The notes beneath the pieces were generated by a model, which was not told where the DNA came from, made no database searches, and saw only the letters and a program-made list of their open reading frames with translations. Positions 4,295-25,243 of a DNA stretch of 25,243 nucleotides are shown here, piece after piece (within the stretch, counting starts at the first letter, position 1; every line of letters begins with the position of its first letter). The position numbers and the translations under genes are program-made. The stretch comes from Proteromonas lacertae (Eukaryota): the NCBI GenBank assembly GCA_002245135.1, contig NGBS01000297.1, positions 248,001 to 273,243 on the forward strand. The letters are read 5' to 3'.

Positions 4295-4411
4295 AAAACA
4301 AAAAATATGAAAAAGAGTCAAACTTGTTTGTTAATCTATTTTGATTTGTTACAGTTATTATTGAATATGTCTCAAGATTGTATAGTTGGATGTGATTCAT
4401 AATAATGAAAG

Positions 4412-4479
4412 AAAGGGGGAAATGAGTACAATTTGAAACCCCTATTTTTTTTGTATTTTTTGTATTGATTTCCCCCTAT
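4412..4479 (+). repeat. Direct repeat copy 1 (~68 bp) with internal 18-bp imperfect inverted arms
   Basis: aaagggggaaatgagtacaatttgaaacccct...ttgtattgatttccccctat recurs at 19396-19462 with one substitution and one T-run indel. Arms 4414-4431 and 4460-4477 are 16/18 complementary. Confidence 0.95.
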
Positions 4480-4526
4480 TGTTTTTTCACCCTTAGAAAC
4501 ATAATTAAACAATAAAAATAATACCA

Positions 4527-4555
4527 ATCGATTCAGCTCATCATGCTGAATCGAT
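4527..4555. repeat. Perfect 11-bp inverted repeat, 7-nt loop
   Basis: atcgattcagc-tcatcat-gctgaatcgat. Confidence 0.9.
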
Positions 4556-4560
4556 ATAAA

Positions 4561-4631
4561 CCAAAAAAATGGATCCTTTACTCGATCGTGAAATGGATTT
4601 CACGATCGAGTAAAGGACCCATTTTTTTTGG
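4561..4631. repeat. Near-perfect ~34-bp inverted repeat with 2-nt loop
   Basis: ccaaaaaaatggatcctttactcgatcgtgaaat-gg-atttcacgatcgagtaaaggacccattttttttgg. Confidence 0.95.
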
Positions 4632-4747
4632 GTTCATTTGAATTATGATTTTATGATTTTTATTATAACCCCATAAAAACAATAATAATAAAATATATGA
4701 TTTAATTTTGATTATGATTTTATATGACTTAATTAGCAGTCATTATA

Positions 4748-5005
4748 TCAATCAATATCAATCACATCCATATCATCATCATCTTCAAATCTCTTTCTTT
4801 TTCTTTTTGTTTCTTCTTCATGTTTTTCAACATCATGATGATCATCTTCTTCTTCTTTATATATATAAATTATTTCTTGCTTCATTTGTCTATGACAAAT
4901 GATATCATCGTTAGGGTTAGCTTGATCCTCGCTTTGAAAGCCAGATGGTAGATCGCCATCGCCCCATTCACTTAGCTCATCTCCACATAACTTTTTCAGA
5001 TCCAT
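4748..5005 (-). CDS. Small acidic hypothetical viral protein with NLS-like KRKRKR
   Basis: 85-aa ATG ORF with protein-like composition and a T-rich leader. Confidence 0.6.
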   Translation of the reverse strand: MDLKKLCGDELSEWGDGDLPSGFQSEDQANPNDDIICHRQMKQEIIYIYKEEEDDHHDVEKHEEETKRKRKRFEDDDDMDVIDID

Positions 5006-5422
5006 ATTTTAGGGTTAAAAAAATAAATTAAAATAATACAAAAATACTAATGTATTATATGTATTATTTTACTTGTATTTTATGTACTCTTTATTGAGAT
5101 TGAATTGACTTTAGCTAACTATAATTTATATATACTTACTAGGGTATATACCCATCTCAATTATATCAATATCTTATTTCAGGCAATAATCTAAATCATC
5201 TTTGATTATGAAACATATATGAAATCTAACTACATCAATCGATTGCTCATGATATGCCATATAATAAGAAACACATCAGATTATTCATTATGTCAATGGA
5301 TCGTGAGATATTATTTTTTTTTAACAAACCTCAAACATTTGTATTACTAAACAAACAATAACTTTATTGATTAGACCCATAAAAATTTAATAATATATAT
5401 AATAGCAAAAAATACAAAGAAT

Positions 5423-6031: not shown

Positions 6032-6415
6032 ATGTCTTATTATGGAGGATGGCCAAAAGGGTTTAAAATTAGTAAAGACTGGAATACATATATTCCTAAA
6101 TCAGTTAATAGGAGTAAATGGAGAAAGAGCTATGATTTGTATAGAGACAAAGTAAAGAATGCACTACAAAACAAAACAAAAGTTAAATTACAATATAGAC
6201 AATTAATGAAAATGTATGAACGATTATTAGCTGCTAATCCACCTAAACAAAGAGGAAGACCAAAAGGAAGTAAAGATAGAGCAAAACGTAAACCAAGACG
6301 AGCAGGGCCACGAGCCGCGCCACGAGCCGGGCCAAAGAATGATCCACATCGTATTGTTGTGCATAATGGCAGGCATTATCAGTATGGTATTCCAGTTCCT
6401 AATATGGATAATTAA
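6032..6415 (+). CDS. Basic AT-hook DNA-binding protein (candidate core/chromatin protein)
   Basis: First ATG at 6032. PPKQRGRPKGSKDR matches the HMGA-type AT-hook (RGRPKGSK) and is followed by PRA repeats. Confidence 0.75.
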   Translation: MSYYGGWPKGFKISKDWNTYIPKSVNRSKWRKSYDLYRDKVKNALQNKTKVKLQYRQLMKMYERLLAANPPKQRGRPKGSKDRAKRKPRRAGPRAAPRAGPKNDPHRIVVHNGRHYQYGIPVPNMDN

Positions 6416-6491: not shown

Positions 6492-6580
6492 GGCCACTTG
6501 ACAACTTGAATTGTAATATAAGTTACAACTGGGGCCACTTGACAACTTGAATTGTAATATAAGTTACAACTTGGGCCAGT
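6492..6580. repeat. 41-bp-period tandem repeat (2 copies plus the degenerate start of a third)
   Basis: ggccacttgacaacttgaattgtaatataagttacaact at 6492 and 6533; ggcca again at 6574. Confidence 0.93.
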
Positions 6581-6647
6581 TGTAAGATACAAGTTTAACC
6601 AAAAGAAACATAATATAATATAATATAATATAAAAAAGCGAAATAAA

Positions 6648-6951: not shown

Positions 6952-7551
6952 CTAACTTACAAGACATTGGTTATTATTAATATATTCATCCTTAATGGAT
7001 CTTGGTGATATTGGAGATAAGTCATAATCTGTGAGATTGACATTGTCATTGTCATTTTCAAGCTTGACTTGTATTTCTTCTATTTCTTTATTATCATTAG
7101 GAGGAGGAGGAGGAGGTAATATATTAGCTTCATGATTCATCATAATAATACTTTCTAATAATTGATGAGTTTTTTCAAAAGATGGGTTTCTTTTCTCCTT
7201 AATCTTGTTAACACACTCAAGGAACATATTAGGTGTAATGCGCACAGTCTCATCTACATCAGAAATACCTAATCGTTGAATTAATTTCTCTTTACTCTCA
7301 TCCCACCAACATCCATTTTTGAATCTATATTCCAAGTCTAATCTATACTGTTCATCGACGTATTTGAGTATATATCTGATCTCACTATAAGTTAATTCCT
7401 TTTTCTCGCCACATATCAAATTCCATAATTTCGATTTGGTTGGTGCCCTCATTTTGCCATCCTTTCTAAAGCAATTAATGAGTATTTGTTTATCAGAGTT
7501 CCAAAAGTTATATGGCACTGTTCTAAATTTGTGCTCCTGATCGTTATTCAT
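6952..7551 (-). CDS. Hypothetical viral protein
   Basis: 199-aa ATG ORF transcribed divergently from the penton gene. Confidence 0.75.
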   Translation of the reverse strand: MNNDQEHKFRTVPYNFWNSDKQILINCFRKDGKMRAPTKSKLWNLICGEKKELTYSEIRYILKYVDEQYRLDLEYRFKNGCWWDESKEKLIQRLGISDVDETVRITPNMFLECVNKIKEKRNPSFEKTHQLLESIIMMNHEANILPPPPPPNDNKEIEEIQVKLENDNDNVNLTDYDLSPISPRSIKDEYINNNQCLVS

Positions 7552-7636: not shown

Positions 7637-8596
7637 ATGTTAGTTTCGAATCATCGTGTATACTACTTAAATTCTGATATGATTGTATTATCTGATTCCA
7701 TGGGTGGAGGAAACAAGTATAAGAAGACATTAAAATTGCAATCATTCGATGATGATTATACTCATGTCAGCTTATTACATGCTGTTATACCCAATTCATT
7801 CCCAACTATACAGGAAGAAACAAATGATGAGTTTTCATTAGTATTCACATTGGGATGGAGACATGATGTTCAAGTAGATGCACCAAAGTATCCAAACATC
7901 ATAAAACACCTCAAAATACCAGAAGGATTCTATGATGAAACTCAGATATTAAGTATGATTAATAATTTAGTAAAAAATATGACATATGATGTTTTTGGAA
8001 TAAATGATGCTGCATATAATGAAGAAGGTTCACATGTGTCTATTATACAAGGAAAAGGAGATTTATTTCGTATAGACAATTTCGATGATAATCAAACATA
8101 TCATATTGAGGTAGCTAATGATATGAATATTATATACTATCAAAAAGACCCAGTATATTGGATAGAAAAATTAGAGATCATCACCAAAGATCTTAGTTAC
8201 AAAATATTAGGTATACCTAAAAACAATTACTGGTGTTGTTTTAAAGAATATATTCCATCTGAAGAACCAGAGAATCAACAAGAAATTATGGTTAAGCCAT
8301 TCCCATTTACTCAATTACCATTTCGTCCTTCTTTGATATGGGTTAATTCTATATCTATTAGATTAGACATAGTGAATATTATGCAGGATTCAAATGTATT
8401 AGAAAATATACCCGTTTCAAATCCTGAGTTACCATTTATTACATATCAGAATAATGACATATTGAATACATCGAAGAGATTTAATAATACCTATAGCAAT
8501 GGTATGATCACTATTCAGATTACTCAACAAAATGGTTATGAACTTAATCTTGATAATATTGAGTTTAATTTAGATATTGTTGTATTTAAAGTCTAA
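7637..8596 (+). CDS. Minor capsid protein (penton, single jelly roll)
   Basis: Motifs YYLNSD, VSLLHAVIPNSFPTI, LKIPEGFYD, VLENIPV and ITIQITQQNGYELNLDNIEFNLDIVV are typical of PLV/virophage/Polinton pentons; the gene sits directly upstream of the MCP. Confidence 0.85.
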   Translation: MLVSNHRVYYLNSDMIVLSDSMGGGNKYKKTLKLQSFDDDYTHVSLLHAVIPNSFPTIQEETNDEFSLVFTLGWRHDVQVDAPKYPNIIKHLKIPEGFYDETQILSMINNLVKNMTYDVFGINDAAYNEEGSHVSIIQGKGDLFRIDNFDDNQTYHIEVANDMNIIYYQKDPVYWIEKLEIITKDLSYKILGIPKNNYWCCFKEYIPSEEPENQQEIMVKPFPFTQLPFRPSLIWVNSISIRLDIVNIMQDSNVLENIPVSNPELPFITYQNNDILNTSKRFNNTYSNGMITIQITQQNGYELNLDNIEFNLDIVVFKV

Positions 8597-8627: not shown

Positions 8628-10085
8628 ATGGCTTTATCTATTCCAAAAGAACAGAAACATGGTGTAGATGTCCCTGTGATGCTACCCTTCTATAATTATG
8701 TGAGATTGTCTCCGATGGGATCAACATCAGAATACAAGTTGGATACAAATACTTATTCAGAAGAGATTAGATGGGAGATAAGTGGAGATAATATTATCAA
8801 TTTAGCTAAGTCATATATCCAATTCGATATCGAAGTAAAATTAAATCCTTATGATGATGGTACCTATGCAAGCGATGGTAGTACTGGTAATTTAGTCGGT
8901 AAAGGTTTATATCCGAGTATGATAAAAGGAATTAAAGAAGGGTTTGGCTTGGCCTCTTTTAGAATTTGTAATCAGACCGGAACAGATCTGGTCAAGCTTG
9001 ATGATTCGTATGAACCATATCGTGTATTTATGGACGAATTAGTTAGAAAGAGATCTGATATATTCTATCAAGACAATTACTATGATGGAATACAATTAGA
9101 TTGGGATGATGATAATCATAATTATAAAGTTCAAGATATCAATAAGTGGAAAGTAGAACCTAGTACACAATATGTTGAATTAAAAGCTAGTACTAGTGCA
9201 TCTACAGCAACAGCATATGCAGTTCAGTATAAAGATTCAGTTATATTACATTTCAAATTACAATTAGGTAAATTTTACAATACATTTGCTGCATTAAAGA
9301 GCGATGTATTCTTTGGAGAGAGAATGTATATATGCATTCGTTTTCAAACCACAAGTAATTATGGTTTATTAAAAGCATATACACCAGATGAATATGCAAG
9401 AATGAAAAATGATAAAACAAAAGATAATGTAAACTATACAGTATCACATGCAGAAGTTGATATAAATGAAGCAATATTCAAGAATTTCAAATTCTATGCT
9501 TATATCAACAAGGATACTCAATGCAACAACAATACCAAACAATACTGCTTATCAAAACCTATTCAATTCAATGATTTTAGATGTCATCAAATTAAAATAC
9601 CATCAGGTGGATCTGGCATATTCAATTATTCATTCACATTGAATAGTTCCAATGGACCATTTGTTCGTTACATAATCTATAGGCCATGGATAGAATCATT
9701 AAAAAGATATGCACATGTACCTGAAAATGCACAATTCAGATGGATGATCAATGATTTTGTATATCAGCCAGATTATACACTTATGCAATATTATGATAGC
9801 TATATGACTGTCCGTGAATATTTCCAAGACTCATGGTATGATATATTCAGAAAAGATGAAAAATTCAATGACAAGTTCTTTGAGATATTGAATTTTGGCT
9901 CTAAGGATTTGGACAATATTAAGAACCAGGCAGGTAGACCTTTGGCTACTGATTTGAAAATAACCTTTGAATTTTCAACACCTGGTACAAATGACTTTAC
10001 TAATAATGATATCACTCATCGTTTCTATATCATCACTGGACGTATGGTCACTATTAATGGAAGTGGTATTGTAAGTGTAGTTTAA
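8628..10085 (+). CDS. Major capsid protein (double jelly roll)
   Basis: 485 aa from the first ATG. YVRLSP...EEIRWEISGDNIINLAKSYIQFDIEV resembles the Polinton/PLV MCP N-terminus; beta-rich; C-terminal MVTINGSGIVSVV; lies between penton and ATPase. Confidence 0.85.
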   Translation: MALSIPKEQKHGVDVPVMLPFYNYVRLSPMGSTSEYKLDTNTYSEEIRWEISGDNIINLAKSYIQFDIEVKLNPYDDGTYASDGSTGNLVGKGLYPSMIKGIKEGFGLASFRICNQTGTDLVKLDDSYEPYRVFMDELVRKRSDIFYQDNYYDGIQLDWDDDNHNYKVQDINKWKVEPSTQYVELKASTSASTATAYAVQYKDSVILHFKLQLGKFYNTFAALKSDVFFGERMYICIRFQTTSNYGLLKAYTPDEYARMKNDKTKDNVNYTVSHAEVDINEAIFKNFKFYAYINKDTQCNNNTKQYCLSKPIQFNDFRCHQIKIPSGGSGIFNYSFTLNSSNGPFVRYIIYRPWIESLKRYAHVPENAQFRWMINDFVYQPDYTLMQYYDSYMTVREYFQDSWYDIFRKDEKFNDKFFEILNFGSKDLDNIKNQAGRPLATDLKITFEFSTPGTNDFTNNDITHRFYIITGRMVTINGSGIVSVV

Positions 10086-10146: not shown

Positions 10147-11004
10147 ATGAGTAAAGTTAATTTAGAAAAAATAAACAACATAGTCATAAATCCTGTTGAG
10201 ACAGTAGTCAAAGGATGTGGAAAACGCTCCAAAGATAGTGTCCTTGGATATGACTATTTCCAGGAGCCATTCTGCAACATATTTATTTTAGCTAAGAAAA
10301 ACAGTGGTAAGACTACACTTATATTTAATATGATCCAACACTTGCTAAAAAAGGGATATGACCAAGTAGTGTATTTTTTCGTTGCAACTATATCCAAGGA
10401 TATCATATATGAGAAAATCACTGATATGCTCAAGTATAACCAAATTGAGTACCATTGCTATGATTCAGTAGTGAATGAAGATAGAGTGAATATATTGGAT
10501 GCAGTATTAGATAATATCAAAGATATAGACAAAGATAATTATGATTACCCAGAGAATATATTTATATTCGATGATATATCATTCGATTTAAGAAATAAAT
10601 CCGTTTCTAAATTACTTAAGTCAAACCGTCATTACAAGTCAAAAGTAATTATATCAAGTCAATATGTCACTGACATTACTCCCTCTGTTCGTTTACAGCT
10701 TGATTACTGTTTGGTATTCAAAAACCTGAGTATGGCTAATTTACGAAATCTGTATGCAAGTTTAGATATATGGATCGATTTTGATGTTTTCAAATCATAT
10801 TATGATTATGCAACTAAACAGAGTAATCACTCATTTTTATATATCGATTTATATAATCATGAATTTAGAGTGAATTTTGATAGCAGAATTAGAGATAATA
10901 GTAATAATAGCTATAATCACAATAATAAATATGATCACCTCATTTCCTATAGCAGCGATGATGAGTCCACTGATTCATCAAGTTATCCCAGCGATTCGGA
11001 ATAA
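10147..11004 (+). CDS. A32/FtsK-HerA family genome-packaging ATPase
   Basis: Walker A variant AKKNSGKTT, Walker B IFIFDD, NRHY arginine motif, IISSQY, PSVRLQ and HSFLYID. Confidence 0.93.
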   Translation: MSKVNLEKINNIVINPVETVVKGCGKRSKDSVLGYDYFQEPFCNIFILAKKNSGKTTLIFNMIQHLLKKGYDQVVYFFVATISKDIIYEKITDMLKYNQIEYHCYDSVVNEDRVNILDAVLDNIKDIDKDNYDYPENIFIFDDISFDLRNKSVSKLLKSNRHYKSKVIISSQYVTDITPSVRLQLDYCLVFKNLSMANLRNLYASLDIWIDFDVFKSYYDYATKQSNHSFLYIDLYNHEFRVNFDSRIRDNSNNSYNHNNKYDHLISYSSDDESTDSSSYPSDSE

Positions 11005-11059: not shown

Positions 11060-12055
11060 ATGTTTGGCCGTCCTATTAAAAAACAAGCTGTATCAACAGA
11101 TCTAACACCTGTCACGAGGGCACTAACATCGATTACAAGCAATTTGGGAGAAAAAGTTGGAGATGCTAAATCGATTAGAGAAATGTTGGTCGATATCAAG
11201 AATAGTGGTACAGGAGGATCATCTGGATCAGGTGGTGATATTGATAGTGCAACTAGTGAGAAAATTGATAAAATTGTGAATGTCATTGGAAAGACCAAAT
11301 TAGAGAGTTGGGAAAATAACATATATTATATGATAAATAATATGTATGCTTATTCTGTTACTGATGCTGATTCAACTTATAATATTGCCAATGGGTTGGT
11401 AGGAGTTATTGGTAGAAATCAATTAACTGAAGGTGAGAAAAATATATACAATATGTTATCTGTTTTGTATTCTACAATTTATGATGATGCTAATTCAATT
11501 GCTTATAATGTCAATAGTATAATGTCCTTTATAGGATATCGAAGTGAATATCAAGATAGTTCATGGAAAATGGAGAATCGTATAAAATGGAGTTCTATGG
11601 GTGAAAATAACATGATATTAAAATCTGTAGATGGTCAATTAGAAATTATTCAAGCAAGACAAGTTTTACCAAACTGTTATTGCTTTATAAGATATGCAGC
11701 TTTTCAAACATATTTGCAAATAGAAATACTAAATCCTGTTAGAATAATAACAAGCGAACTAATAATTAATTCAATCTTAACTCCAGATGTAGAAAAATTT
11801 TTAAGCAAATATTTAAGTTTTACAAATAATGTACCAAGAATAGATATATTTTTTGAGTCATTAAGTGGGCATCATCAAGTATGCTTTTTTGAAATTACTC
11901 GTGATAGATGTAGTTTTAGTATGAAAAATCCTACTACAGAACATAATGTGGATAACTTTGAAGGTAATTGTATTCTAATCCCACAAAAAATAATATTTCC
12001 ATATGGTAATAATGTTATAATTCATAAAGATGATGCATTTGATTTTAATATATGA
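11060..12055 (+). CDS. Fibre/spike-like protein (putative)
   Basis: First plausible ATG (MFGRPIKK) follows a T-rich leader. Helical N-terminus, GTGGSSGSGG hinge, ~41-aa tandem repeat and beta-rich C-terminal domain; located in the structural cluster. Confidence 0.5.
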   Translation: MFGRPIKKQAVSTDLTPVTRALTSITSNLGEKVGDAKSIREMLVDIKNSGTGGSSGSGGDIDSATSEKIDKIVNVIGKTKLESWENNIYYMINNMYAYSVTDADSTYNIANGLVGVIGRNQLTEGEKNIYNMLSVLYSTIYDDANSIAYNVNSIMSFIGYRSEYQDSSWKMENRIKWSSMGENNMILKSVDGQLEIIQARQVLPNCYCFIRYAAFQTYLQIEILNPVRIITSELIINSILTPDVEKFLSKYLSFTNNVPRIDIFFESLSGHHQVCFFEITRDRCSFSMKNPTTEHNVDNFEGNCILIPQKIIFPYGNNVIIHKDDAFDFNI

Positions 12056-12062
12056 ATTATAA

Positions 12063-12765
12063 TTAATTCTTCTTGTTTCTCTTGTATTGTTGGTTTTGAT
12101 TATCACTCTCAGTTCTTCTTTTCATCGGAGCAGGTGTTGTTGGTACTGGAATAATATCATAATCTGCAGGTTGTGTATACATATTCTCCAAATCTATGTC
12201 ATCTACATCCTGATTCTCAGCACACTGATCCTCATCATCCTCCTTCTCCTTCTCAAGTTTTTGCTCAAATTTCTTGATACTACTATGCACCTTCAAATTT
12301 TGGGATAATAGTGTATTTTTCTTTATCCTTCTTATCTAATACAGTTATCTGTCTAATTCTCAAATCACACTGACACTCATAAAATAAATAACTTGGAGGA
12401 TCTTTAATCTTGTTTAACCATGCCCAGAATCTGACAGTGTTATTATCGTTGTCTTCAGGAAATATCACTTGGAAGCCACATTTCTTATAGTCTTTGACCA
12501 TATTTGAGTCATCTGTATACTTGATGGCATAATCCACAAACATTTTTTTCAAAGGCTCCTTTACATCTTGATAATAATTTTTAATAGGTCTTCTGTTCTT
12601 AAATAAGAACCTTCCTGGAGTAAAACTCATGATATAGTACTTTGCATCTTCAATCTTTTCTGTATTTGGTTCAGCTTCATTACACCATCCTTTTACAGTT
12701 AAATAAGTAACATCTCTATCATCTAATGTTATAAAATTAGATCCATTATTGATATTTGAGCTCAT
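12063..12765 (-). pseudogene. Frameshifted gene, possibly an ssDNA-binding protein with acidic tail
   Basis: ORFs 12283-12765 and 12063-12296 join by a 1-nt shift near 12295-12301 (..YTIIPK/LKVHSSIKKFEQ..). The beta-rich core plus acidic C-terminus is only suggestive of an SSB. Confidence 0.45.
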
Positions 12766-12958: not shown

Positions 12959-13189
12959 ATGTCAGACAACCAAAAAGATACTTCAGAAAAATATAAGGAC
13001 TTAGATTATTGTGATTACATGCCATTCGAAGATGCTCGAAATAGATTCTGGGAGCGTATGGAGCAATTAGACCCTAATGGGAGTGATGCTTTATCTAAAG
13101 AGTATAATCGATTTTTAAAGAATTTTAATCAAGAAAGAGAAGAAATAATGAGAAGTAATTATAATAATTATAATAATAGTAACCATTAG
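12959..13189 (+). CDS. Small hypothetical viral protein
   Basis: 76-aa ATG ORF with charged helical composition. Confidence 0.6.
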   Translation: MSDNQKDTSEKYKDLDYCDYMPFEDARNRFWERMEQLDPNGSDALSKEYNRFLKNFNQEREEIMRSNYNNYNNSNH

Positions 13190-13210: not shown

Positions 13211-13848
13211 TTACGGTCTATAGTATTCTCTTTTTGATATGACTCCCACAAATTTACAAAGACAATGATACACGTTCCATATTAACCGCTCATACTCATC
13301 TAACTCCCTCTCAAAATGCACCAACTCATAATGATTTCCTTCTTTTTCATTATTACGTATACGTTCCCATAGACATATTAATACATTATGAACTCCAACT
13401 TTTACTGCAGAGTATCGGAACAGTATCTTTCAAACATAATTTTATAGCATCATCTACTCTATTACTCACCTCTATACAATCTTCTACACTGAGATTAAAA
13501 AATCTTGTTTGAATTCTATAATGAGTTAGAGATTCTTTAAAAATTTCTAAAATATGCTGAATTTGAGTTATATTGAATTTCACACGTGGTAAACTCTCTT
13601 CACCAATTGGTAATGCTAAACCAGCATGTCCCTCACAATCACATATTGCTCTCTCACTATGCTCCAAAACATCTAAATTAGCTTTATATGTATGCACATC
13701 CATTTTCTTTACATCTTTTCTCATTGAATAGGCATACTGGTTTTACAGCATCTTCAATCGGCAATGCTCTTTCTAATTCAGTGAAATCTAGAGGTTTAAC
13801 AATACTTTTAGGTGAGTCAGTATGTTGTAATGGTGGTACAGTGTTCAT
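13211..13848 (-). CDS. Hypothetical gene in three frame segments (two frameshifts or two 31-nt introns)
   Basis: MNTVPPLQ.. (13848), the 13386-13724 ORF and ..ILFRYSAVKVGVHNVLICLWERIR..YYRP* (stop 13211) are successive +1 frames. Confidence 0.5.
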
Positions 13849-13907: not shown

Positions 13908-14431
13908 TTAAAGATCTTCTAAATCTTCTTCTTTATCAAGGTTTTTTGAATCGTCACATTGCATGTTTGGCTTGATCAAATGCTTATGTTTTTTTGATGG
14001 TACTAATTCATCTAATGATTCAGATATAGTACTTAATAATTTTCTTTTAGTGGTGTGGATTACACTATCTGGTGTTACAATATCTGCAATATCATAATCA
14101 TCGTACCATGTGTCCATTTTCCATCCTCATCATCATTGAACTCAGCATCATATTCTACATCATCATCAATGAAATCCTTTAAATTACCATTACTATCAAC
14201 ATCACTTGCATTTGGATCATCTTCAGGATCATAGTCATCAGAGTCATCGTCAGTACATTCTGCTTCTCCATATAAGTACTTATACACATTATCAATCATA
14301 TCCCTTTCTCTTTTTCTTTTTTGACTGAATCGCATTTTCTTATCTTCTAAATTTTCTTTCTTTTGGTCTTGATCATTTGATTTACCCATTATGCCTATAA
14401 CGTGTATGGTATTATGGTTGTTTGAATCCAT
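13908..14431 (-). pseudogene. Acidic low-complexity protein, frameshifted at 14117-14120
   Basis: Adding one A to the A4 run gives ..DDEDGKMDTWYDDYD.., which fuses ORFs 14075-14431 and 13908-14117. Confidence 0.55.
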
Positions 14432-14499: not shown

Positions 14500-14859
14500 T
14501 TAACCTATTAATGTCATATTTTGTCTAGCATATTGCACAGGAGTTAAATTCTGTACTGGGTATGGCTGTTGTTGTTGTATTGGTGTTTGATTTCTCTCCA
14601 TTAACACTTCATCTGTCAATTTATTTAATATAGCTTGTGCTTCCTTGAATCTCCATGGATTAATACTCTTTAACATCTGTTGTGCCTCTGGAGGTAATGT
14701 TTCGAGTGTTTTCAGTACTTGAGCTTGTTGATCATTTTGTACCGATTGTTGCGATTGTTGATTCGGTTGTGGCTGTGGTAGATATTGAGGGTGTTGACCA
14801 TCTTGTTGATATGCAACACCACTATTAAAAGTTATTTGAGGTATTGGACCAGCTGACAT
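14500..14859 (-). CDS. Gln/Pro-rich hypothetical viral protein
   Basis: First ATG at 14859 (MSAGPIPQ), 119 aa. Confidence 0.7.
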   Translation of the reverse strand: MSAGPIPQITFNSGVAYQQDGQHPQYLPQPQPNQQSQQSVQNDQQAQVLKTLETLPPEAQQMLKSINPWRFKEAQAILNKLTDEVLMERNQTPIQQQQPYPVQNLTPVQYARQNMTLIG

Positions 14860-14933: not shown

Positions 14934-15463
14934 ATGGTTAAAAGAAGTTCAAAAGTGAAATATCGTAAGTATATCATAGGTAAAGGCAAGTTCTGGGATG
15001 GAGTAAAGAATTTCTTTAAGAAAACAAAAATTTTATCAACAGCAGCTAGTTTAATCCCAGGTGTAGGTCCAGCCTTAGGTAATGTTGTATCCAATGTAGG
15101 ATATGGTAGAAAACGTAGAAGAAGAGGTGGACAAGCAGAATGGAATTATGATGGTGGTATAAGTGGTGCTGGTTCTTTTGGAATAAAGTTAAGAATGCAA
15201 AGATACCAAAGGAATTAAAAAATGTAATTAGTGGTGGTCCAGGCAGTATGCCCTATTTAAAAAATGGTGGAATGGCTAATCCATTTGCTGTAAAGATGTT
15301 AGGTGGTCCAAGCACTATTCCAAAAAAGAATTGGACGAAAGGTGGTCCAAGTACTATACCGAAATTTTTGTTAGCAAAGAAAAAGACTGGTTCTGGTAAA
15401 AGACGTAAAAGTAGTAATAGTCTCGATAATCGATATATTGACAATAAGATTAGAGTTTTCTAG
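14934..15463 (+). CDS. Arg/Gly-rich core / protein VI-like precursor, frameshifted at 15176-15179
   Basis: GKGKFWDGVKNFFKK. Adding one T to the T4 run yields a second motif GAGSFWNKVKNAK and fuses to ORF 15248-15463 (GGPSTIPK x2). Confidence 0.7.
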
Positions 15464-15522: not shown

Positions 15523-15816
15523 ATGCCAAAAGGTGGTAGAAGACGTAGATGCGTTTATGGAAGAAGGGGTGGTTCATTTTGGGGTAAGTTAAAAAATTGG
15601 GGTTCCAAAGCATTTAACTGGGCAAAGGATCATAAAATAGCATCCAAAATAGCTAGGGAATTTGGAAAGAACGATATCGCAGATGGATTATCAACAATGG
15701 GATTTGGTCGTAGAAGACGTAGGTCAGGAAGAGGTAGATTACCATTCAATGGAGGTGGGAGTAATCAACAAGCATTATTGAATGCATATTTAAAATCAAA
15801 GGTGGCTCGAATGTAA
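15523..15816 (+). CDS. Arg/Gly-rich protein VI-like (membrane-lytic/core) protein
   Basis: RRGGSFWGKLKNWGSKAFNWAK amphipathic helix; G(F/Y)GRRRRR motif shared with the upstream gene. Confidence 0.75.
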   Translation: MPKGGRRRRCVYGRRGGSFWGKLKNWGSKAFNWAKDHKIASKIAREFGKNDIADGLSTMGFGRRRRRSGRGRLPFNGGGSNQQALLNAYLKSKVARM

Positions 15817-15911: not shown

Positions 15912-16526
15912 ATGAGTGATACTGAATCAACTGAATACGTGAGTGATGATAGTTCTACTGATGAGTCTGATAGTGAAGTAGAGTCAATAAATGAAAATGA
16001 TTCCAAGATGTCCAAACCAAAAATCGCAGAAGCTGAACCAAGTGATGCTATGATCAATGAATTACTATCACAATTCTCTCCAAAGGATATATACAACATA
16101 TTACAGAATGATGGATCATCATCTCATAAAAATTCAATAAAAGGTAAAAAATACTCCCATAAATCCAGATCAAGATCAAGATCACATGAGAGATCCAAAA
16201 GAAGATCTAGCAAGAAACAAAAATCAAATGCTTTAGACGAGCCAAAGTCCAAACGTGGTGGTGGTAGAAAAAATAGTAAAAAGGATAGGGACTCATCATT
16301 ACCTCCTCCTAGTCGTATGACAAAAGCTGAATTACAAATAGCTTTGAAAGAAACCAGAGATCAATTAGGCAAATATATGAAGAAATTAGAAAAGAGTTCA
16401 AATCCAAAGAAAGAGAAAATAGAGAAAGTAAAAGAACCAGAACCAGAAGAAGATAAACCATTAGGTAATGATATTGCAGGTAGAGAAATACAAGGCGAGC
16501 CTATCGAGCCTGTTTATGTTCAATAA
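15912..16526 (+). CDS. Charged low-complexity protein (acidic N-terminus, RS/K-rich middle, coiled coil)
   Basis: First ATG at 15912 (MSDTES); SRSRSRS tract. Confidence 0.75.
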   Translation: MSDTESTEYVSDDSSTDESDSEVESINENDSKMSKPKIAEAEPSDAMINELLSQFSPKDIYNILQNDGSSSHKNSIKGKKYSHKSRSRSRSHERSKRRSSKKQKSNALDEPKSKRGGGRKNSKKDRDSSLPPPSRMTKAELQIALKETRDQLGKYMKKLEKSSNPKKEKIEKVKEPEPEEDKPLGNDIAGREIQGEPIEPVYVQ

Positions 16527-16597: not shown

Positions 16598-17620
16598 ATG
16601 AAAAAACTAAATAAGAAAATACTGCTTGCTGTGTTTGCTCGGATGAGAGGCAAAGGCAAAAGAAAGAAGATACGGAGAGGTGAAGGATATAAAGGACATG
16701 ACAAATATTATCAGAGTTTATATAATAATTTTTATAGAGAAAATGCGAAAGATTTAGTGGATATAAGAAACAGTCGTTTAAATGAAATAAAAGATGAGAT
16801 TACTAAGTTAAATTCTAAAGACACTCCTCCTAATGAAGGTGATATTCGTAAATTGAATGATGAGCAAAAATTTTTAGAGAGACAGAATGCAATCGATTCT
16901 ATGTTATCTACATCATTACATGAAGGTAATGCAATGGCTATACCACTTGCTAATAGTTTAAGAGAGATTGATGATCAGCATTTGTTTGGTCCTAACATGT
17001 ATGTGAATATGAATAGACCTAATTACAATGAAATGGCTCAAGCAAGTGCAAAGACTAGGATGCAGATGGGTGAGTATATGAGTAATCCAATTAACCAAAT
17101 CAAGATGTCACAAATGCAACAAATGGTATATATGCTATATGTTTTGATTTATATATAATAGTAGAAGTTGAATAAATTGATTACTCCTAAAGCAGAAACA
17201 GATATTAAAGTACAGCCGTCTACTGGTAATACAGATGATGTTAAAGAACAGACTGATCATGATCCTGTTGATGATATTACTATTGACGATGTTAAAAAAT
17301 TTACTAAAGAACAAATGGATGAAATATTTGATGAATATGACTTTACAGAAGCTCAGAAAACTAAAATAAAAGAATTATGGGAAGAAGCTCAAAATATTAA
17401 ACAATATGAAGAATGGGTTGCAAATGGAAAAACAGATGATGATGATGATGAAAATGAAGATATTGAATTCAATAAACCAAAAGAAGAAGAAGAAGAAGAT
17501 GATGATGAATTTAAATCTGATTTTGAAGAAGAAGAAGAACAAGAAGATGAGAATGAGGATAATGTTAAAAAAATTGATAGACAGTTAAACAGAATTTTTG
17601 ATGAACTGGGTATTCATTAA
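16598..17620 (+). CDS. Spliced viral gene (intron 17126-17164): basic N-terminus with GxG motifs, acidic C-terminus
   Basis: ORFs 16598-17158 and 17168-17620 share a frame. Removing the 39-nt GTATAT..TAG segment deletes the stops and gives QMQQM/KLNKLITPK. Confidence 0.75.
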
Positions 17621-17700: not shown

Positions 17701-19032
17701 ATGGGTGTTAAACGAAAGCATAAGCAACAATCATCACCAAAAGAAGAAGCAATTGATTTTGAGAATCCTTCTGTGTATCATAATGCACTTAAGAGAAAAT
17801 TGAAAAAGATCATCTACAACAAAGTGAAAGATAACAAAAAAATAAAACTAGATCTTAGTCACATGGCTAACCCAACAGTCAATGTTGACAAAGGCAATGG
17901 TACATATGGATTAGGCATCTATGATCCTAAATCTAATTTCAATAAATTTTATGATACTATAGGAGATGATGATGATATAGAGGAATTATCAAAGCCTGTT
18001 AATCCAAATATAAACGCAACAAAAAACAATTTCATGACTGATGAGATGAAATACAAATTATATATGTCAGGCATCACAGATCAGTTTGGACGATATTATA
18101 GGAACATAGGTAAGTATAACAAACCATACTCAGATTATTATGCTCAACCAGAGAATTTAACATATCAATGGCAAAATCCATTTTTATCTCAAATTGAAGG
18201 ACAGCCATTACAACAATGGGGATCACAGTACAATGTAAATTCATATCAATCCAATCCAAGATGGAATAATAATGCTGGTACAACACAAAAAGATCACGAG
18301 TATGAATTACAACAAGAAAATGAAATAATGAAAGCAAGGAATGAAGAATATCAGAGAAAGATAGCAACAATGGAAGAAAGAGAAAAAGAGTCATTAATTG
18401 CAAAAATTGATAAATATTTCTCAGGTAATACAACATACGATTGGTTGAAATTTGGTGTGAAGTTCTGCTTATGTACTATGACATTAGGTTCTATTTCACA
18501 AGTGTTTGATATACTATTTCCTGATAGTACTGTTGGTGCAATATTAAAGTATTTAGTAAATGCAGGAATAGGATATAGTGGTGTTATGCAATGGATATTT
18601 GGTTTATCTCCAGCATGGGTTAATGCAGCATCTTTTCTGTCAATGTTAACTCCTAATTTTGTCAGTTTGGTATATAATCGTTGGAAACAAGTTCCTCCAA
18701 TGGATATGTCACAATGGATTCATTCTAAGTTAGATAGTATAATGGGTTTCTTTACTACATCACTAAGTAATATATACAATTGGTTCAGAGGTATATTTGG
18801 TGCTACTCCTACAACAACAACAAATTCGACGAGTGCGCCGGCCACTTCAAATATTCAAGCATCGAATGTTACAACTGCTCCCAGTTATAATAATACAACT
18901 AATAGTACTACAATTGCCCCCAGTTATAATAATCAAAGTTCAAATGCTGCAAGTTACGCCACGGCGGCAGCAGCCCAGCCAGCATTCCAAAATAACTATA
19001 ACAATATGTTATACCATGATAGAAATATATAA
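17701..19032 (+). CDS. Large hypothetical protein with coiled coil, hydrophobic/amphipathic helices and T/S/N-rich tail
   Basis: 443 aa from the first ATG; hydrophobic block FGVKFCLCTMTLGSISQVFDILF..AASFLSMLTPNFVSLVY. Confidence 0.8.
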   Translation: MGVKRKHKQQSSPKEEAIDFENPSVYHNALKRKLKKIIYNKVKDNKKIKLDLSHMANPTVNVDKGNGTYGLGIYDPKSNFNKFYDTIGDDDDIEELSKPVNPNINATKNNFMTDEMKYKLYMSGITDQFGRYYRNIGKYNKPYSDYYAQPENLTYQWQNPFLSQIEGQPLQQWGSQYNVNSYQSNPRWNNNAGTTQKDHEYELQQENEIMKARNEEYQRKIATMEEREKESLIAKIDKYFSGNTTYDWLKFGVKFCLCTMTLGSISQVFDILFPDSTVGAILKYLVNAGIGYSGVMQWIFGLSPAWVNAASFLSMLTPNFVSLVYNRWKQVPPMDMSQWIHSKLDSIMGFFTTSLSNIYNWFRGIFGATPTTTTNSTSAPATSNIQASNVTTAPSYNNTTNSTTIAPSYNNQSSNAASYATAAAAQPAFQNNYNNMLYHDRNI

Positions 19033-19395
19033 TCTTATGATAGTTTATAGTGTATTGGAAATAGAAAAAACGAATTAAAAAAAAGAAGGCTTGAAGGCTC
19101 GAAATTGTTTTTAACAAAAAATAAACTGTTTTTTGAGAGCAATCCAGTCCAAGATTAAAGGCTTGAAATATATATTACAAAGCTTGTAGAATATTCTGCA
19201 AAGCACTGTAAATCTTAAAAAATAAAGATTAACTTAGTCAAACCATCAAGCTTGATGTTTTTTTCTTTTGATTTTTTTATTCTATAATTAATTTAATACT
19301 ATGTTAATTATATGTTATTGTGAGTCATCATTGTGAGTGCATCGACTGATAGTCAAATTTGATATTTGAAAGATGATGTATAATAATAATGAATA

Positions 19396-19462
19396 AAAGG
19401 GGGAAATGAGTACAATTTGAAACCCCTGTTTTTTTGTATTTTTTGTATTGATTTCCCCCTAT
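19396..19462 (+). repeat. Direct repeat copy 2 of 4412-4479
   Basis: Near-identical sequence in the same orientation, 14984 bp downstream. Confidence 0.95.
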
Positions 19463-19657
19463 GTGTTTTTTGTCCGTTTCATAATCAAATCATAATTCAA
19501 GCTTACATTATTTTTCGCTTTTCTGTTTGAATTTAAACAAAAATAATTATTCCATTTGAATCCTCATCTTATGATGAATCTATTTATGTTGTTAGTTCAA
19601 ATTATAGAAAGTGAATGACATATAATTTCAAAAAATAATTCAATAAAAACAATCTCA

Positions 19658-19709
19658 ATAGGATGGTCAACACATGGTGTGATATGACACCATATAGTGA
19701 CCATCCTAT
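19658..19709. repeat. Imperfect hairpin
   Basis: ataggatggtca..atggtgt-gatatg-acaccat..tgaccatcctat (12-bp and 7-bp stems). Confidence 0.85.
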
Positions 19710-19884: not shown

Positions 19885-20683
19885 TTAATAATCATTTTGG
19901 TACTCTGGCTCCTCATCATCATCATCTACTATATATTGTGAGAAGTTATCATCATCATCTTCCTCTGTAGTACTATCTTCTTGTTCTTGGTTTTTGGTTG
20001 AAATGTTTTTTTGATTTATTTTCTTTCTTTTGAATCTTGGAGTTTTAGATGTACTGCGCTTTCTTTTTGTGGATACCACCTTTAACAACTTGTTGTTGTT
20101 GTCATCATCATCATTATAATCATCATCATTCAGGTTATCAAACAACGATGCTATAGAGACTTTACTACTTACTATACTTTCAGCAGTACTTCTGTAAACA
20201 ATATCTCCTTTCGAATTCTTGTTTTCTTCTTTTTCGCATTTTGCTAAATCGTTGTCACCGAAATGTATGATATACATACAAGTCAGTTCCACCATGTCCT
20301 CCATTGCATGGTCAAGCATACGATCATACTATTGATTCAAAATTGAAATATATATTAAATGGATATACGATGCTTTTGTCCAGATCCTTTTTATACATGA
20401 TATTACATAGCAGGACAGACATCAACACTCTGGACATTTTTAATCTTTCATGTCGAGCATCAATCTTTTCAATTTCTGTGAATCTTTTGTACCATGTACT
20501 GAAACGCCTTATACTGAAGTTACCATTCCAGCTATAGACATATAATAATATATTATACCTATAACGTTGCAAATCTTTCTCATGTTCTACAATCGTCTTA
20601 AAATTCTCACAAAAAATTTTATATATGCTCGGATTTGGATCATTAATGAAACTATTTTTGTATAGTATCTTCCAGTTGCTCAT
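19885..20683 (-). CDS. Spliced viral gene (intron 20329-20368): helical domain plus acidic/NLS tail
   Basis: Removing the 40-nt gtatatcc..aatcaatag segment joins ..DLDKSI/YDRMLDHAMEDM.. in frame. Confidence 0.75.
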
Positions 20684-21015: not shown

Positions 21016-21058
21016 GGCTTGACGCTAGACCACGAGGCTTGACGCTGGACCCGAGGCT
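21016..21058. repeat. Short GC-rich tandem repeat (~19 bp x2)
   Basis: ggcttgacgctagaccacga ggcttgacgctggacccga ggct. Confidence 0.8.
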
Positions 21059-21106
21059 AAAATTTATATATTCGTTTCATTTTTCTTATTTTTCATTTTA
21101 TTCAAT

Positions 21107-21207
21107 AACCGTTCATTTGTACAACGGTTTTAACGGTCGTTACGAATCCGTTACATGTCAGTTACATAACTGACGTGTAACTGACGGTGTAACTGCCGTC
21201 CGTTGTA
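21107..21207. repeat. Imperfect palindrome rich in AACGG/GTTAC motifs
   Basis: Core gttacatgtcagtta-ca-taactgacgtgtaac (14/15); outer arms tacaacgg/ccgttgta. Confidence 0.8.
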
Positions 21208-21342
21208 AACATTTGTTCAATTATGTTATAGAGACTGATATAAACCTTAAGAAGGCCATATACACCACCTAAGACTCGTTTTCACTTTCCCTTGTTTTCA
21301 CTTTCCCTTTTCTTTTACTCATTTAGTTTTTGAAATGCGGAT

Positions 21343-21465
21343 TTCATAATCGATTTTCCTTTCCCTTTCTTTTTTTCACTTATTTACCTAGAGAAAAGTG
21401 ATCGACTTCACTTTCCCTAAGTAAGGAAGTGAAAAAAAGAAAGGGTAAGAAGAATCGGTTATGGA
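21343..21465. repeat. ~120-bp imperfect hairpin
   Basis: Perfect 19-bp arms ccctttctttttttcactt / aagtgaaaaaaagaaaggg plus inner and outer partial stems. Confidence 0.85.
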
Positions 21466-21584
21466 TTTTTTATGTTATTTTAAATAAACCCTTAAAAACA
21501 CACAGTCTTCTTTTTATTTTAATTAATCTCTGTATTAGTATTTAAAATATATAATTATTTAATCATAATTAGATAAATTCATAT

Positions 21585-21998
21585 TTACTTACTTCTTTTT
21601 TTGATATCTGCATCCATTTTCACTCTAGCTGCTAAAGCATCACATAATAAAGATAGTAATCCATTAACTGCGTAATCTAATTTGTTATCAATAAATAATT
21701 GATTATTCTCAATTAATTCTTTCTTAAATCTATTACCATCTTTTCTAATATTATCTAAATATGTGATAATTTCCAATCTTTTTTTCGTTGCATACTGATT
21801 AGTATAATAATGCTTAACTTTGTCTAGTATAGCTTTTAACTTTGCTAGATTAGCTATGCTCTCTTCTAAATAATATAAGAAATGAACTTCTGTATATCCA
21901 TTTAATGCTAATTCTCTAATGCTATTAAAAACTTTGATCCAAAATGGTATTTCTTCTTGAACCATTGTTATATCTCTCTGATAAACAAAATGACGCAT
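21585..21998 (-). CDS. Hypothetical helical viral protein
   Basis: First ATG at 21998 (MRHFVYQ), 137 aa, divergent from polB. Confidence 0.7.
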   Translation of the reverse strand: MRHFVYQRDITMVQEEIPFWIKVFNSIRELALNGYTEVHFLYYLEESIANLAKLKAILDKVKHYYTNQYATKKRLEIITYLDNIRKDGNRFKKELIENNQLFIDNKLDYAVNGLLSLLCDALAARVKMDADIKKRSK

Positions 21999-22193
21999 TT
22001 TAATATAGTAAAAAATCAAAAAAACAATAAATTAAAAGTAAAGTTAATTATTTCTTTGATAATCAAAGAAAAAATTTTAACTATATTATTACAACTCCTT
22101 AATTATCAAGGAATTTCAATTAGCAAATCATATTAATACATTTGGAGTTATTTTATTGGGTATATTTATATCTTTCTCGTTTTATAGGTTCTA

Positions 22194-25100
22194 ATGTATC
22201 CCAGCTATCCTCCTTGGTTTAATCCGTGGTATTACCAGTCTCCAAGTACTTCTATGCCTATTCAAGGCAATAGTCAAGCAAATCAGATTCCAATGTTGCC
22301 ACAAAGTTATTTTAATCCCTGGATGAACCCTTATTTTACTCCAGCTATCCCACCACCACCATCCTATTACTATCCTCCACCATATTATGTAGGATCATTA
22401 AATCAACATCCACAACAACCTCAGCAGCAGCAGCAACAACAACAACAACAACAACAATCAAACACTACTAGAAGTACTAATGGAACTAGTTTCATAACAC
22501 CAAGAAGAAGAACAACATCTTCAATTGTAATTGATTAACCACCTCCTCCACCTCCAAAAATACAGCGATTAGCAGAAATCCCAGATGATTTATTACCAGA
22601 TACACCTCCTCCTGAAGATCCACCAACACTTTCACCAATTAATGATGGACCAATTCCTGAAATACATCCTCAATCAACTACAGATGTTGAAAGAAGAAGG
22701 CAGCTACAGGAAGAAATGATTGCTCTGGATGTTGTTGATAATCATCCAGAGCAGCTGAAAACAATGTCACATCCTGAAAGAGTAAGTTTGTTACAACTTG
22801 TAGAGAGAAGTAGTAGAGACTACGAACGTACCTACGAGAAGATTATAAATGAAGAAGATGGAAAGAAACCTGAGGATTTGTTTACCCAAATCTGCAATGC
22901 ATCAAGTGATTTTATGGTTACCATACGTAACTACATAAATGAGAAGAAATTTTCTTATATAAAAGTTTATTTCAGATTCAGAGTAGGTTATATAGGATCC
23001 GATGAACCAGCCAATGCACAAGTAAGTTGTTACAAAACATTCGAAACAGCGCCAGAAATTATAACTTCTCAAGAGTTAGGTACAATTGGTTCAAAGTTAA
23101 ACAATGCCATGATTCGAGATTTAGGTTCAATTTTCAACACTGAAAGATCTGAACTAAAGTTCAGATATATTAAGAAGGTAGAGATGATACTGATGAAAAG
23201 TTCAATGGCTGCTGGATCCTCTACAGAAGATGACAACATAAAGTTACCAGCAAGTCTCAACAATAGAAAGTGCGTTATTAATTTAGTAAGATATAGTGAA
23301 GAATGTAAGAATATGTGCTTTTTATTTAGTGTGGCAGCTGGTTTACACTATATAGAGTTCAAAGACCACCGTAACAGAGCAATGAAATATAAACAGTATG
23401 TAGACTTAATGGATGTAAGTAGTTTAAGGTTTCCAGTAGATGCAATTAATGATAGTGACAGAATTGATGAGTTTGAACAGCTGAATCATATTACTATCAA
23501 TATATTTACAATAGACCAGAATGAACCAATACCTTTATACGTTACCAACATAGATAAAAGAAAACACTGGCCTCATGTGAACCTATTGATATATAAAGAT
23601 CATTATATGGTAATAACAAAGTTAGAAGCCTTCCTATCACCTTCTGGTAAAAGGTGTCATAATTATTATACCAGATGCCAGTATTGTTTCTGTACTTTAT
23701 CAACAGCTGATATGATAATTCAACATCAGAAAGAGAATTGTCAATTACAAAAGGAATCATTCGTCAATTTCCACCTCCAGATACCTTCATCAAGTTTCAT
23801 AATTTCAAATACCAACAAATGATTCCTGTAGTATTATACTGGGATACAGAAGTTATACAAGTACCAATAGATCCTTCTGAAGTAATACCTGGAGCCAAAG
23901 GAGCGTTTAAAAAACATATTCTCAGCAGTTGGTGCATTCACTTAAGTTCCAGGTACCCTGAAATCATCAGCGAAGAAACATTCTTCGGAAAACTGGAATT
24001 GCAGCAAGATCCACAAGATTTGGAGATGCAACTAGTAAAGAAGTTTGTTGAGATTCAAGATTATGTATTGAAGAAGTATGAAGATTATAAAAGTGGTGAA
24101 TTGAAACCATTAGATGAAAGCACTTATATTCCAGCTCATAAAAATATCGATAAATGTATGTGGTGCAATACACCCTTCAATGAAAACGACAGAAATAGAA
24201 GGCGAACAAGACACCATGACCATTTTACTGGCAAGTATATTGCAACCTTATGTTCAAACTGTAATTGGCATTGTAGTTTACAACATATGCCTATACCATG
24301 TTTGGCACACAACAGTAAAAACTATGACAATAACTTTATAATACGCGGATTATCAAAGTTGGATAAAGAAATGGAAGCAAAATGGTACAATGATAATAAT
24401 ATTCCTATTCCAAATGATGATGATGATGATGATGAAGATAATGAAATTATACAATTACCAATACCTGAACCTGAACCTGAACCAATTGCTGATAGATTAG
24501 CTGAATACAATAGAGGTATTGAAGAAGAAAAGAAACAAGAACAAGAAGCAAAAACAGTTGATGATGAAGAAGATGCAGAAACAGAAGAAGATACTGATTC
24601 TGATTTGCCATTACCAGAAATACCACCAAATGCAATTGAAATAGTTGATGAGAATGATCCAGCAAATGAAGAAGCATTTAATGAGTTGTATTACATGTTA
24701 CATAGTAGAGATCATTACATATCACCAAGAACAGCAGAAGATATTGGATTAGAAGAAGAGATGGGAAATATTATTGTTTCACAACCTAATTCAACAACAA
24801 CTGAACAACAACAACAACAACAACCAACACCAAGAAAGAAGAAATATCATTCAAAACTATCTGTATTGTTAAAAACTGATAATAAGTTTTTACTTATCAA
24901 GTTCATGAAGTTACACTTTATAGATAGTTGTCAATTTATGCCAGCATCATTAGATTCATTAGTAAAATCATTGAAAGTCGAAACTGATGCACATGCTAAT
25001 CATAAAGTACTCTTTAAACCAGTTTATCAATATGTAACACAAACAAAAGAGATAAATGATTGTTTAAAAGAGAGAAACTGGACAGTGGATGATTTTATAG

Positions 25101-25243
25101 CTAAGTGGGGTTTACAGAAAGGTCATTTCCCCTACGAATACGTAGATAGTATTCAAAAGTTATACCTTACTGATTAATTACCTAGAAAAGAAGATTTTAA
25201 GTCTCAATTAAAACAGAATGAAGGTATTTCTGATTATAACTAT
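22194..25243 (+). pseudogene. polB: Protein-primed family B DNA polymerase (Polinton-type), 5' part, interrupted
   Basis: Motifs KLPASLNNRKCVIN..CFLFSV, FPV, EFEQLNHITINIF, HVNLL..HYMVI, PVVLYWDTE (ExoI), HHDHFTGKY..CSNCN (EndoVII-like), AHNSKNYD (ExoII), FIDSCQFMPASLDSLV and KGHFPYEY. In-frame TAA at 22536 and 25175; -1 shift near 23749-23752. Confidence 0.92.

Follow-up and report, generated by a model that had tools for sequence, protein, structure and literature searches.

Endogenous major capsid proteins (MCPs) of Proteromonas lacertae were recorded in the protist survey of Bellas 2023, whose Tables S1, S3 and S4 (PMC10120064) give 285 hits in one cluster under 'Iterative HMM searches' (HMM, hidden Markov model). 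The Maverick-Polinton columns do not include this cluster, and ten Blastocystis assemblies in the same tables show no MCP count. Nested insertions are described as common in Halocafeteria, a related stramenopile (10.64898/2026.07.28.741278), and tandem elements and repeat-bracketed replication modules have been published for polisuviruses (10.64898/2026.10.13.758929). Here we analyzed a stretch of 25,243 nucleotides from a P. lacertae assembly (GCA_002245135.1, contig NGBS01000297.1, positions 248,001 to 273,243 of the forward strand), hereafter the window, which was originally predicted to hold one endogenous polinton-like virus (PLV) just upstream of a host Hsp70-like gene. We estimate a probability of roughly 60% that the window holds two related endogenous PLVs, of which the second is nested in the first or adjoins it, with integration likely in exon 1 of an Hsp70-like gene in a gut protist, likely of the Blastocystis/Proteromonas type. 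The predicted MCP fold, the packaging ATPase, the pPolB DNA polymerase and the host gene support the original prediction as far as it describes an endogenous PLV in a protist with mini-introns.

A map of the open reading frames (ORFs) confirmed that viral genes form a compact array, which starts at 4399 and continues to the end of the window. The array opens with a 90-bp end, denoted X1, and a second copy, X2, was found at 19383 on the same strand (94.4% identity over 90 columns, 5 of which differ; E 3e-33). An AAT triplet repeat opens both copies. Protein-primed polymerases can use slide-back priming, for which short repeats at the ends are well suited. The likeness extends over a further 56 bp at 75%, a level reached by 4 of 1000 shuffles. 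To the left of X1 and X2 no significant likeness was detected (p 0.05-0.37, 30 tests), and a repeat extending left of 4399 was rejected for this reason. The genes after X1 differ from those after X2. Apart from its internal palindrome, X has no inverted copy within the window, and it had no match in the viral contigs searched. Since X2 is like X1 while different genes follow each, the left flanks are unrelated and no inverted copy is seen, the locus is best explained by two stacked elements. Because of the second same-orientation end, the prediction of a single element was not confirmed. Unit 1 (4399-19382, 14,984 bp) carries capsid and core genes only, and unit 2 carries pPolB. In unit 1, neither replication nor integration genes were found with Pfam, PHROGs, NCBIfam or the small profiles for rve and protease.

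We then characterized the capsid module. An AlphaFold2 model of the MCP, built on the family alignment, had a predicted local distance difference test score (pLDDT) of 85 and a predicted template modelling score (pTM) of 0.84. The top Foldseek matches listed were double jelly-roll capsid proteins at 6-12% identity (E 1e-11 to 2e-13 for those at 7-12%). The model matched the PBCV-1 capsid chain 8h2i_bC with Z 22.0 (root-mean-square deviation 3.5, 336 aligned) and the Sputnik and mavirus MCPs with Z 15.4-15.9, below PBCV-1. The proposed MCP is thus a double jelly-roll protein by predicted fold. Six MCP homologs were found among 5555 candidates (32-67% identity), all from Logan, and the nearest Logan proteins were 59-67% identical to the window MCP. 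A profile search returned 100 proteins at E<=0.001 and 12 at <=1e-30; 9 of the 10 MCP clusters looked up were Logan-only, and 0 of 76 aligned family members matched Pfam. We constructed a quick tree of 38 rows (the window, 33 of the 104 MCP-search proteins and 4 locus MCPs), in which the window MCP was grouped in a 10-row clade (Shimodaira-Hasegawa-like approximate likelihood ratio test, SH-aLRT, 100; stem 1.92). A sister set of 11 proteins was homologous over the whole length (prob 99.8). An MCP on an IMG/VR contig (L003:5865-7286) was matched by A2, the broad profile of the family (E 4e-8), but its long branch lies outside the clade of the window MCP.

The ATPase proposed at 10147-11004 proved to be of the A32 type. 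It was matched at E 1.7e-24 by a profile of six Pox_A32-positive ATPases from fetched loci, and Walker A (GKT), Walker B (DD), R161, Q172 and R182 were invariant in 7 of 7 rows. Its PHROGs match (E 4.5e-6) was the best of the weak PHROGs matches (22 proteins). A32-type ATPases have a packaging role. The protein proposed as the penton is likely a minor capsid protein. Its gene adjoins the MCP gene, as expected for a minor capsid protein, and Atlas placed it (0.98, 219 of 256 features) in a cluster with 26% Sputnik V18/19, with a recognition value of 1960 that, being below the mark of 2300, counts as weak. The penton assignment stands as likely on this one Atlas line, and structure prediction from the single sequence did not add to it (pLDDT 31, unusable). 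In the comparison with pentons of the fetched loci only a G-x-Y block aligned (profile prob 1.5). PDB sequence searches gave no match for the penton, the ATPase, the MCP profile or P0118, a homolog of pPolB.

The penton, MCP and ATPase genes and 11060-12055 are unbroken as assembled. Unit 1 therefore has four intact capsid-module genes and yet, by the searches run, no gene for replication or integration; X stands at the start of both units; and the Logan contigs with family MCPs (<=7.8 kb) show no linked pPolB. Such a pattern could arise in a two-part system, in which a 15-kb capsid-only unit and a transpoviron-like pPolB-integrase unit share one common terminus and complement each other. This appears quite improbable to us: unit 1 is without the inverted right end expected of an independently integrating unit, and short Logan contigs are expected anyway. 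Relatives of the MCP, ATPase or pPolB with gene context were not found in the viral contigs or metagenome contigs searched.

The predicted pPolB was identified in unit 2 but is not intact. The homolog P0118 (1673 aa, PF03175 E 3e-20) is 38% identical to the frame 22539-23819 and 40% identical to the frame 23711-25174, and the alignment runs end to end across the frame switch near 23750. The P0118 leader and 22194-22535 are alike in being Pro/Gln/Tyr-rich. The catalytic Cys and His motifs of the vOTU domain, defined for pPolB in 10.1101/2024.03.18.585575, align with P0118-P0120. An Endonuclease_7 (EndoVII/HNH-like) insert was seen at E 0.002, below cut-off; an HNH insert is described as marking pPolB2 of oomycetes and nematodes (PMC10748475). 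A long acidic low-complexity insert at 24380-24840 in the exonuclease region is also present in P0118, which suggests a lineage trait.

The pPolB frame is interrupted by in-frame stops at 22536 and 25175 and by the frame change near 23750. Judged by its sequence, this copy of pPolB is dead as assembled, and the four capsid-module genes are intact. We rejected stop-codon reassignment, as TAA serves as the normal terminator of viral ORFs and different residues occupy these positions in the homolog, and introns as the cause of the breaks, as 0 of 6 frame-opening intron candidates cover them. Both stops (22533-22538 and 25172-25177) are TAA straight after GAT, which may be chance. In the element as a whole we counted seven breaks, namely five frame changes (near 12300, 13745, 14120, 15200 and 23750) and the two stops; those in pPolB were checked against the homolog, and the other frame changes are judged from the coding scores to either side of them.

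As the original prediction had stated, profile and family searches of the window found no rve integrase, tyrosine recombinase or adenain protease. For rve, neither six-frame searches (6-sequence profile, best E 1) nor Pfam gave a match in the window, which ends inside pPolB; for the Ulp1/adenain protease, the same searches (2-sequence profile, E 0.23) gave none in this incomplete element. We fetched 10 loci with a pPolB alignment, and 6 of them have an rve-matching ORF adjoining pPolB (E 8e-16 to 7e-3). Of the other four, one ends just after pPolB, one is without rve, and two are unrelated phage matches. Based on the 6 of 10 loci, an integrase is predicted just to the right of the window. With its capsid module, a vOTU-pPolB and a predicted integrase, the element is, by its gene content, expected to work like a polinton.

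On the host side, splice modelling of the minus strand, started at the ATG at 4294, reached position 1 with 12 introns removed and 0 frame changes, giving at least 1289 codons. All 12 modelled introns (26-57 nt) have the form GTAT..TAG, which confirmed the predicted mini-introns, and (AT)n tracts are present in them. Pfam HSP70 matched two exons (E 3.7e-6 and 2.9e-5), and a protein search with one exon found 0 homologs. The ATG lies 104 bp from 4399, in agreement with the predicted distance of about 100 bp. At 1289 aa or more, the host protein is of unusual length: its N-terminal part is divergent and resembles an Hsp70 ATPase, and Lys, Glu, Asn and Ile are abundant in the ~800 aa that come after it. 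The window has a GC content of 22.2% in 1-4398 and 30.3% in 4399-25243, and an observed/expected ratio of GpC of 0.40 and 0.92, respectively.

A second host gene appears to meet the element at the junction. On the plus strand, an ATG at 4367 opens MSQDCIVGCD, which ends at the junction, and the neighbouring Hsp70-like protein starts MECVGCDFGG; over the VGCD codons 12 of 13 nt agree. Shuffling the 104 nt gave the 13-mer match in 37 of 200,000 cases and, in 14 of 300,000, the motif at the junction together with an ATG in frame with it, in tests framed after the motif had been noticed. The insertion thus likely interrupts a second Hsp70-like paralog, placed head to head with its neighbour, ~10 codons into the first exon, which gives a sharp prediction for the right flank. 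Endogenous virophages often insert into exons (13 of 22 sites listed in PMC8547959). The original view of one element just upstream of a host gene is likely wrong in two respects: two same-orientation ends are present, and a second, plus-strand gene is likely cut. The 72 bp between the two divergent ATGs (4295-4366) are a candidate bidirectional promoter of the head-to-head pair and contain TGTTTGTT at 4325. We dropped TGTTTGTT as a Blastocystis-type end signal, as only 4 copies were found, two of them after viral genes. It is described as not enriched in tortoise isolates (PMC12129017).

We searched the element for introns of the host type and found 121 GTAT..TAG stretches of 24-60 nt, 6 of which open a frame when removed. 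The candidate at 17126-17164 is in phase, holds three in-frame stops and, when removed, joins two ORFs. Its 39 nt have a coding score of -25.2, compared with +16.9 and +12.5 for the flanking 90 nt; the scored flanks overlap the training set upstream only. The 150 nt after it score +24.5, and the maximum over 566 non-coding windows was +6.7. This suggests that 16598-17620 likely carries a 39-nt host-style intron, like the 12 modelled host introns. The case for 20329-20368 is weaker (scores -1.3 and +8.9), a third candidate at 5341 is doubtful, and the remaining three look like chance. Introner insertions have been reported in dinoflagellate elements (PMC12166617) and group I introns in PLVs (PMC12220804), and, according to the protist survey of Bellas 2023 (PMC10120064), viruses of this kind 'do not contain introns'. 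If real, the intron would contradict this working assumption and argue for transcription in the host nucleus. Taken furthest, the locus could represent a split polinton-like system of gut stramenopiles, in which a unit with capsid genes only and a distinct polymerase-integrase unit complement one another and have a common 90-bp end, and which carries its own host-type spliceosomal mini-introns, that is, a nuclear, host-spliced virus and not an intronless giant-virus parasite; we consider this improbable.

Several observations weigh against two stacked elements or against parts of the evidence above. Units 1 and 2 are nearly equal in GC (31.5 vs 32.7%) and in GC at third codon positions (GC3, 0.23 vs 0.25), as in a single genome, and one copy of each core gene is present across both units, with 0 duplicated. 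The upstream motif AACG(G/A)nTAT is common to both. No right end, target-site duplication (TSD), integrase or protease was seen within the window, so nesting is a conclusion that we infer. The best GC change point lies at ~3970, to the left of 4399; composition thus does not fix the host-element junction, which rests on the repeat X. Support for the penton is weak (low Atlas recognition, failed fold, profile prob 1.5, blank PDB search), and Pfam Pox_A32 itself gave no match to the ATPase at 10147-11004. With 6 of 121 intron candidates opening frames, some do so by chance, and the intron case is built from sequence. All five frame changes fall in short A/T runs, the pattern of long-read error.

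The motif occurs 10 times in the element and 0 times in the host flank, and 200 Markov resamples gave a mean of 1.07 and a maximum of 4. The pattern was picked by eye; 2 of the 10 copies are inside genes and 4 lie 29-68 nt before an ATG. It is a candidate viral promoter common to both units. Intergenic copies were located at 10105, 12794(-), 14463, 14866, 17643, 20745, 21076(-) and 21113(-), often close to ATATTGATATT.

The same composition and motif in both units, together with complementary gene content and 0 duplicated core genes, could also reflect one chimeric virus with a genome >21 kb, in which a capsid module was combined with the left end and replication module of a relative and the internal X is the scar of the module swap, by now fixed in that genome. 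Repeats bracketing replication modules have indeed been described (10.64898/2026.10.13.758929). However, the internal X is 94% identical to the terminus and has its own sub-terminal extension and hairpin, which suggests a recent separate end, and nested insertions are reported as common in the related stramenopile (10.64898/2026.07.28.741278). We regard a chimeric virus as unlikely, though worth keeping in view. The count of seven breaks in the element, compared with zero over the 1289 codons of the host gene, would suit a repeat that was poorly polished, as would be expected if the X repeats had joined unrelated contigs during assembly, or if free viral DNA had been joined to host DNA. By estimate, however, the break rates are not significantly different, as ~1.6 host breaks would be expected and 0 were observed. 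Of the 90 columns, 5 distinguish X1 from X2, the host sequence stops in what is plausibly a cut exon, and the candidate host-type intron in a viral gene ties the virus to this host, so that an assembly artefact is very improbable.

Two stacked elements thus remain the preferred explanation, and the genes suggest how such a virus might work. The MCP, whose fold was modelled, and the putative penton would build an icosahedral shell, into which the A32-type ATPase would package the linear genome. The basic core proteins may condense the DNA and, after protease cleavage, expose amphipathic helices for entry. pPolB, whose vOTU residues are conserved, may free the terminal protein via this domain and prime at the AAT-repeat end, and the rve integrase predicted to the right of pPolB would, as in relatives, insert the element. 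The candidate host-type intron and the common upstream motif suggest that host nuclear machinery would read the viral genes. Unit 1 shows its capsid half only, and its replication genes and inverted right end would lie beyond unit 2.

Table 1 Host and viral features of the window, in order of position.
Feature	Position	Strand	Remarks
Host Hsp70-like gene	1..4294	-	splice model; runs off window
Likely first ~10 codons of second, head-to-head Hsp70-like gene (..IVGCD)	4367..4398	+	ends at junction
Element end X1	4399..4487	+	AAT triplet repeat at start, internal inverted repeat; fold z -3.3
Sub-terminal region	4505..4628	.	56 bp 75% like 19533-19586, then hairpins 4527-4555, 4563-4628 (fold z -11.2)
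Acidic ORFan, 85 aa	4748..5005	-	coding score +51.7
ORFan, 165 aa	5423..5920	+	no family match
Basic protein, likely DNA-binding core protein	6032..6415	+	RGRP motif; no family at cut-off
Tandem repeat, 41 nt x 2.2	6492..6582	.	
Small ORF, one hydrophobic segment	6651..6884	-	
ORFan, 199 aa, divergent from penton gene	6952..7551	-	
Likely minor capsid protein (penton)	7637..8596	+	intact
Double jelly-roll MCP (predicted fold)	8628..10085	+	intact; Proteromonas-type family
A32/FtsK-type packaging ATPase	10147..11004	+	intact
Protein with 41-aa internal repeat and C-terminal domain	11060..12055	+	real start likely 11060
ORFan, acidic tail, frame change near 12300	12063..12765	-	both parts score coding; Atlas without usable match
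Small ORFan	12959..13189	+	coding score +30.5
ORFan, frame change near 13745	13386..13848	-	
Acidic ORFan, frame change near 14120	13908..14431	-	
Gln/Pro-rich ORFan	14500..14859	-	
Basic core-like protein, amphipathic helix after Gly-rich site, frame change near 15200	14934..15463	+	Lys + Arg 23%, hydrophobic moment 2.15
Basic core-like protein, pVI/pX-like in character	15523..15816	+	Lys + Arg 26%
Acidic/basic Ser-Arg-rich protein	15912..16526	+	
Viral gene, 327 aa if spliced	16598..17620	+	39-nt GTAT..TAG intron candidate 17126-17164
ORFan, 443 aa, Ser/Thr/Ala-rich tail	17701..19032	+	no 19-aa window >1.6 hydropathy
Element end X2	19383..19471	+	orientation as X1; start of second unit
Hairpin after X2	19658..19709	.	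fold z -5.4; sequence unlike hairpin after X1
Two adjacent ORFs, possibly one gene	19885..20683	-	40-nt GTAT..TAG candidate 20329-20368
Non-coding control region: 20-nt, 16-nt tandem repeats	21016..21463	.	hairpins 21147-21184 (z -5.4), 21345-21463 (z -8.7)
ORFan, 137 aa	21585..21998	-	
pPolB, N-terminal two thirds	22194..25243	+	Pro/Gln-rich leader, vOTU with Cys and His, exonuclease with EndoVII/HNH insert; runs off window

Most other genes of the element could not be assigned to families: no viral ORF reached a curated cut-off in Pfam or NCBIfam (29 proteins each), an Rfam scan gave 0 matches, and a sigma-70 scan was at chance level (124 vs 138). The protein of 11060-12055 had been called a fibre, a name that found no support, since neither a family nor a PDB match was obtained; a fibre or spike role would be a guess. 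The 129 nt before 11060 score as non-coding. The RGRP motif of the 6032-6415 protein is presumably AT-hook-like. Amphipathic helices are present in the two basic proteins of 14934-15463 and 15523-15816, and adenovirus pre-protein VI matched the latter only at E 1.4, which we treat as a lead. An identity as single-stranded DNA-binding protein (SSB) for 12283-12765 was dropped, as Atlas gave no usable match. Short repeats with the core GGCTTG/AGCTTG are found both at 19087-19261, on the right of unit 1, and at 21016-21058 in the control region of unit 2, and small palindromes lie at 19175-19211 and 19240-19261. AT-rich palindromes of ~60 bp were located at 5020-5081, directly upstream of ORF 4748-5005, and at 22033-22091, between ORF 21585-21998 and pPolB.

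We compared the locus with the P. lacertae capsids of Bellas 2023. By eye, over ~400 residues, the window MCP and the 450-aa representative of that cluster share four ordered blocks with 10/17, 13/20, 6/6 and 9/10 identical residues (window residues 50-66, 332-351, WMINDF and KFFEILNFGS) and the same PBCV-1-like fold match. The representative is, by eye, even closer to P0006 than to the window MCP. The clusters of the survey were built at 25% identity over 30% of the length (PMC10120064); the blocks here are 59-100% identical, as read without an alignment run. By this comparison the window MCP appears to belong with the Proteromonas-type cluster, and its capsid family has thus been detected before, which weakens the suggestion of a possibly undescribed lineage. 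The lineage is thus not wholly undescribed. In the survey tables the cluster is known as MCP hits only, and the window MCP is in another subclade. The locus would provide the first genome layout found for this capsid family, known until now from MCP hits in Proteromonas.

The element has a predicted double jelly-roll MCP, an A32/FtsK-type ATPase and its own replicase (pPolB, in a broken copy), which are features of Polisuviricotina. In common with Polintons/Mavericks (Polintoviricetes), as described in PMC10748475 and 10.1101/2024.03.18.585575, it has a vOTU pPolB with an HNH/EndoVII insert, an A32 ATPase, a double jelly-roll MCP and a likely minor capsid protein, and its terminal triplet repeat resembles the (AGT)2 end motif quoted in PMC8097293. 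The likeness to pPolB2 rests on the HNH-type insert, not on a tree. The MCP appears to be of another cluster than in Polintons/Mavericks, and no rve, Ulp1 protease, terminal inverted repeat or TSD (5-8 bp in Polintons/Mavericks) was seen in the window, which stops short of the right end. Membership in the adintoviruses (Eupolintoviridae), which are marked by an animal host and adintovirus-like virion proteins, was ruled out by the 26-57 nt introns at 22% GC, the MCP of a stramenopile cluster and a BFVD adintovirus match of 9% identity. The Blastocystis hominis MELD virus (PMC8502044), compared by description, is alike in its gut stramenopile host and in having a pPolB and virion proteins unlike known ones; it is described as having an integrase and an Alpha-type PolB, and the best MELD match to the MCP in BFVD was 10% identical. 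The host flank, with a GC of 22% and variable short introns, is similar to reptile-associated Blastocystis, for which a GC of 21-23%, longer variable introns and canonical stops are described (PMC12129017). The MCP family links the locus to Opalinata, which together with the flank suggests a host of the Blastocystis/Proteromonas type. With such a host, the capsid family would likely reach Blastocystis-type protists, although the ten assemblies in the survey gave no MCP count. As in the Halocafeteria and polisuvirus cases, elements appear to be stacked at one site and repeats lie between capsid and replication modules. Unlike in those cases, the two ends here have 94% identity and, as far as the window reaches, the units complement each other exactly; such near-identical ends would catch nesting or a module swap at an early stage.

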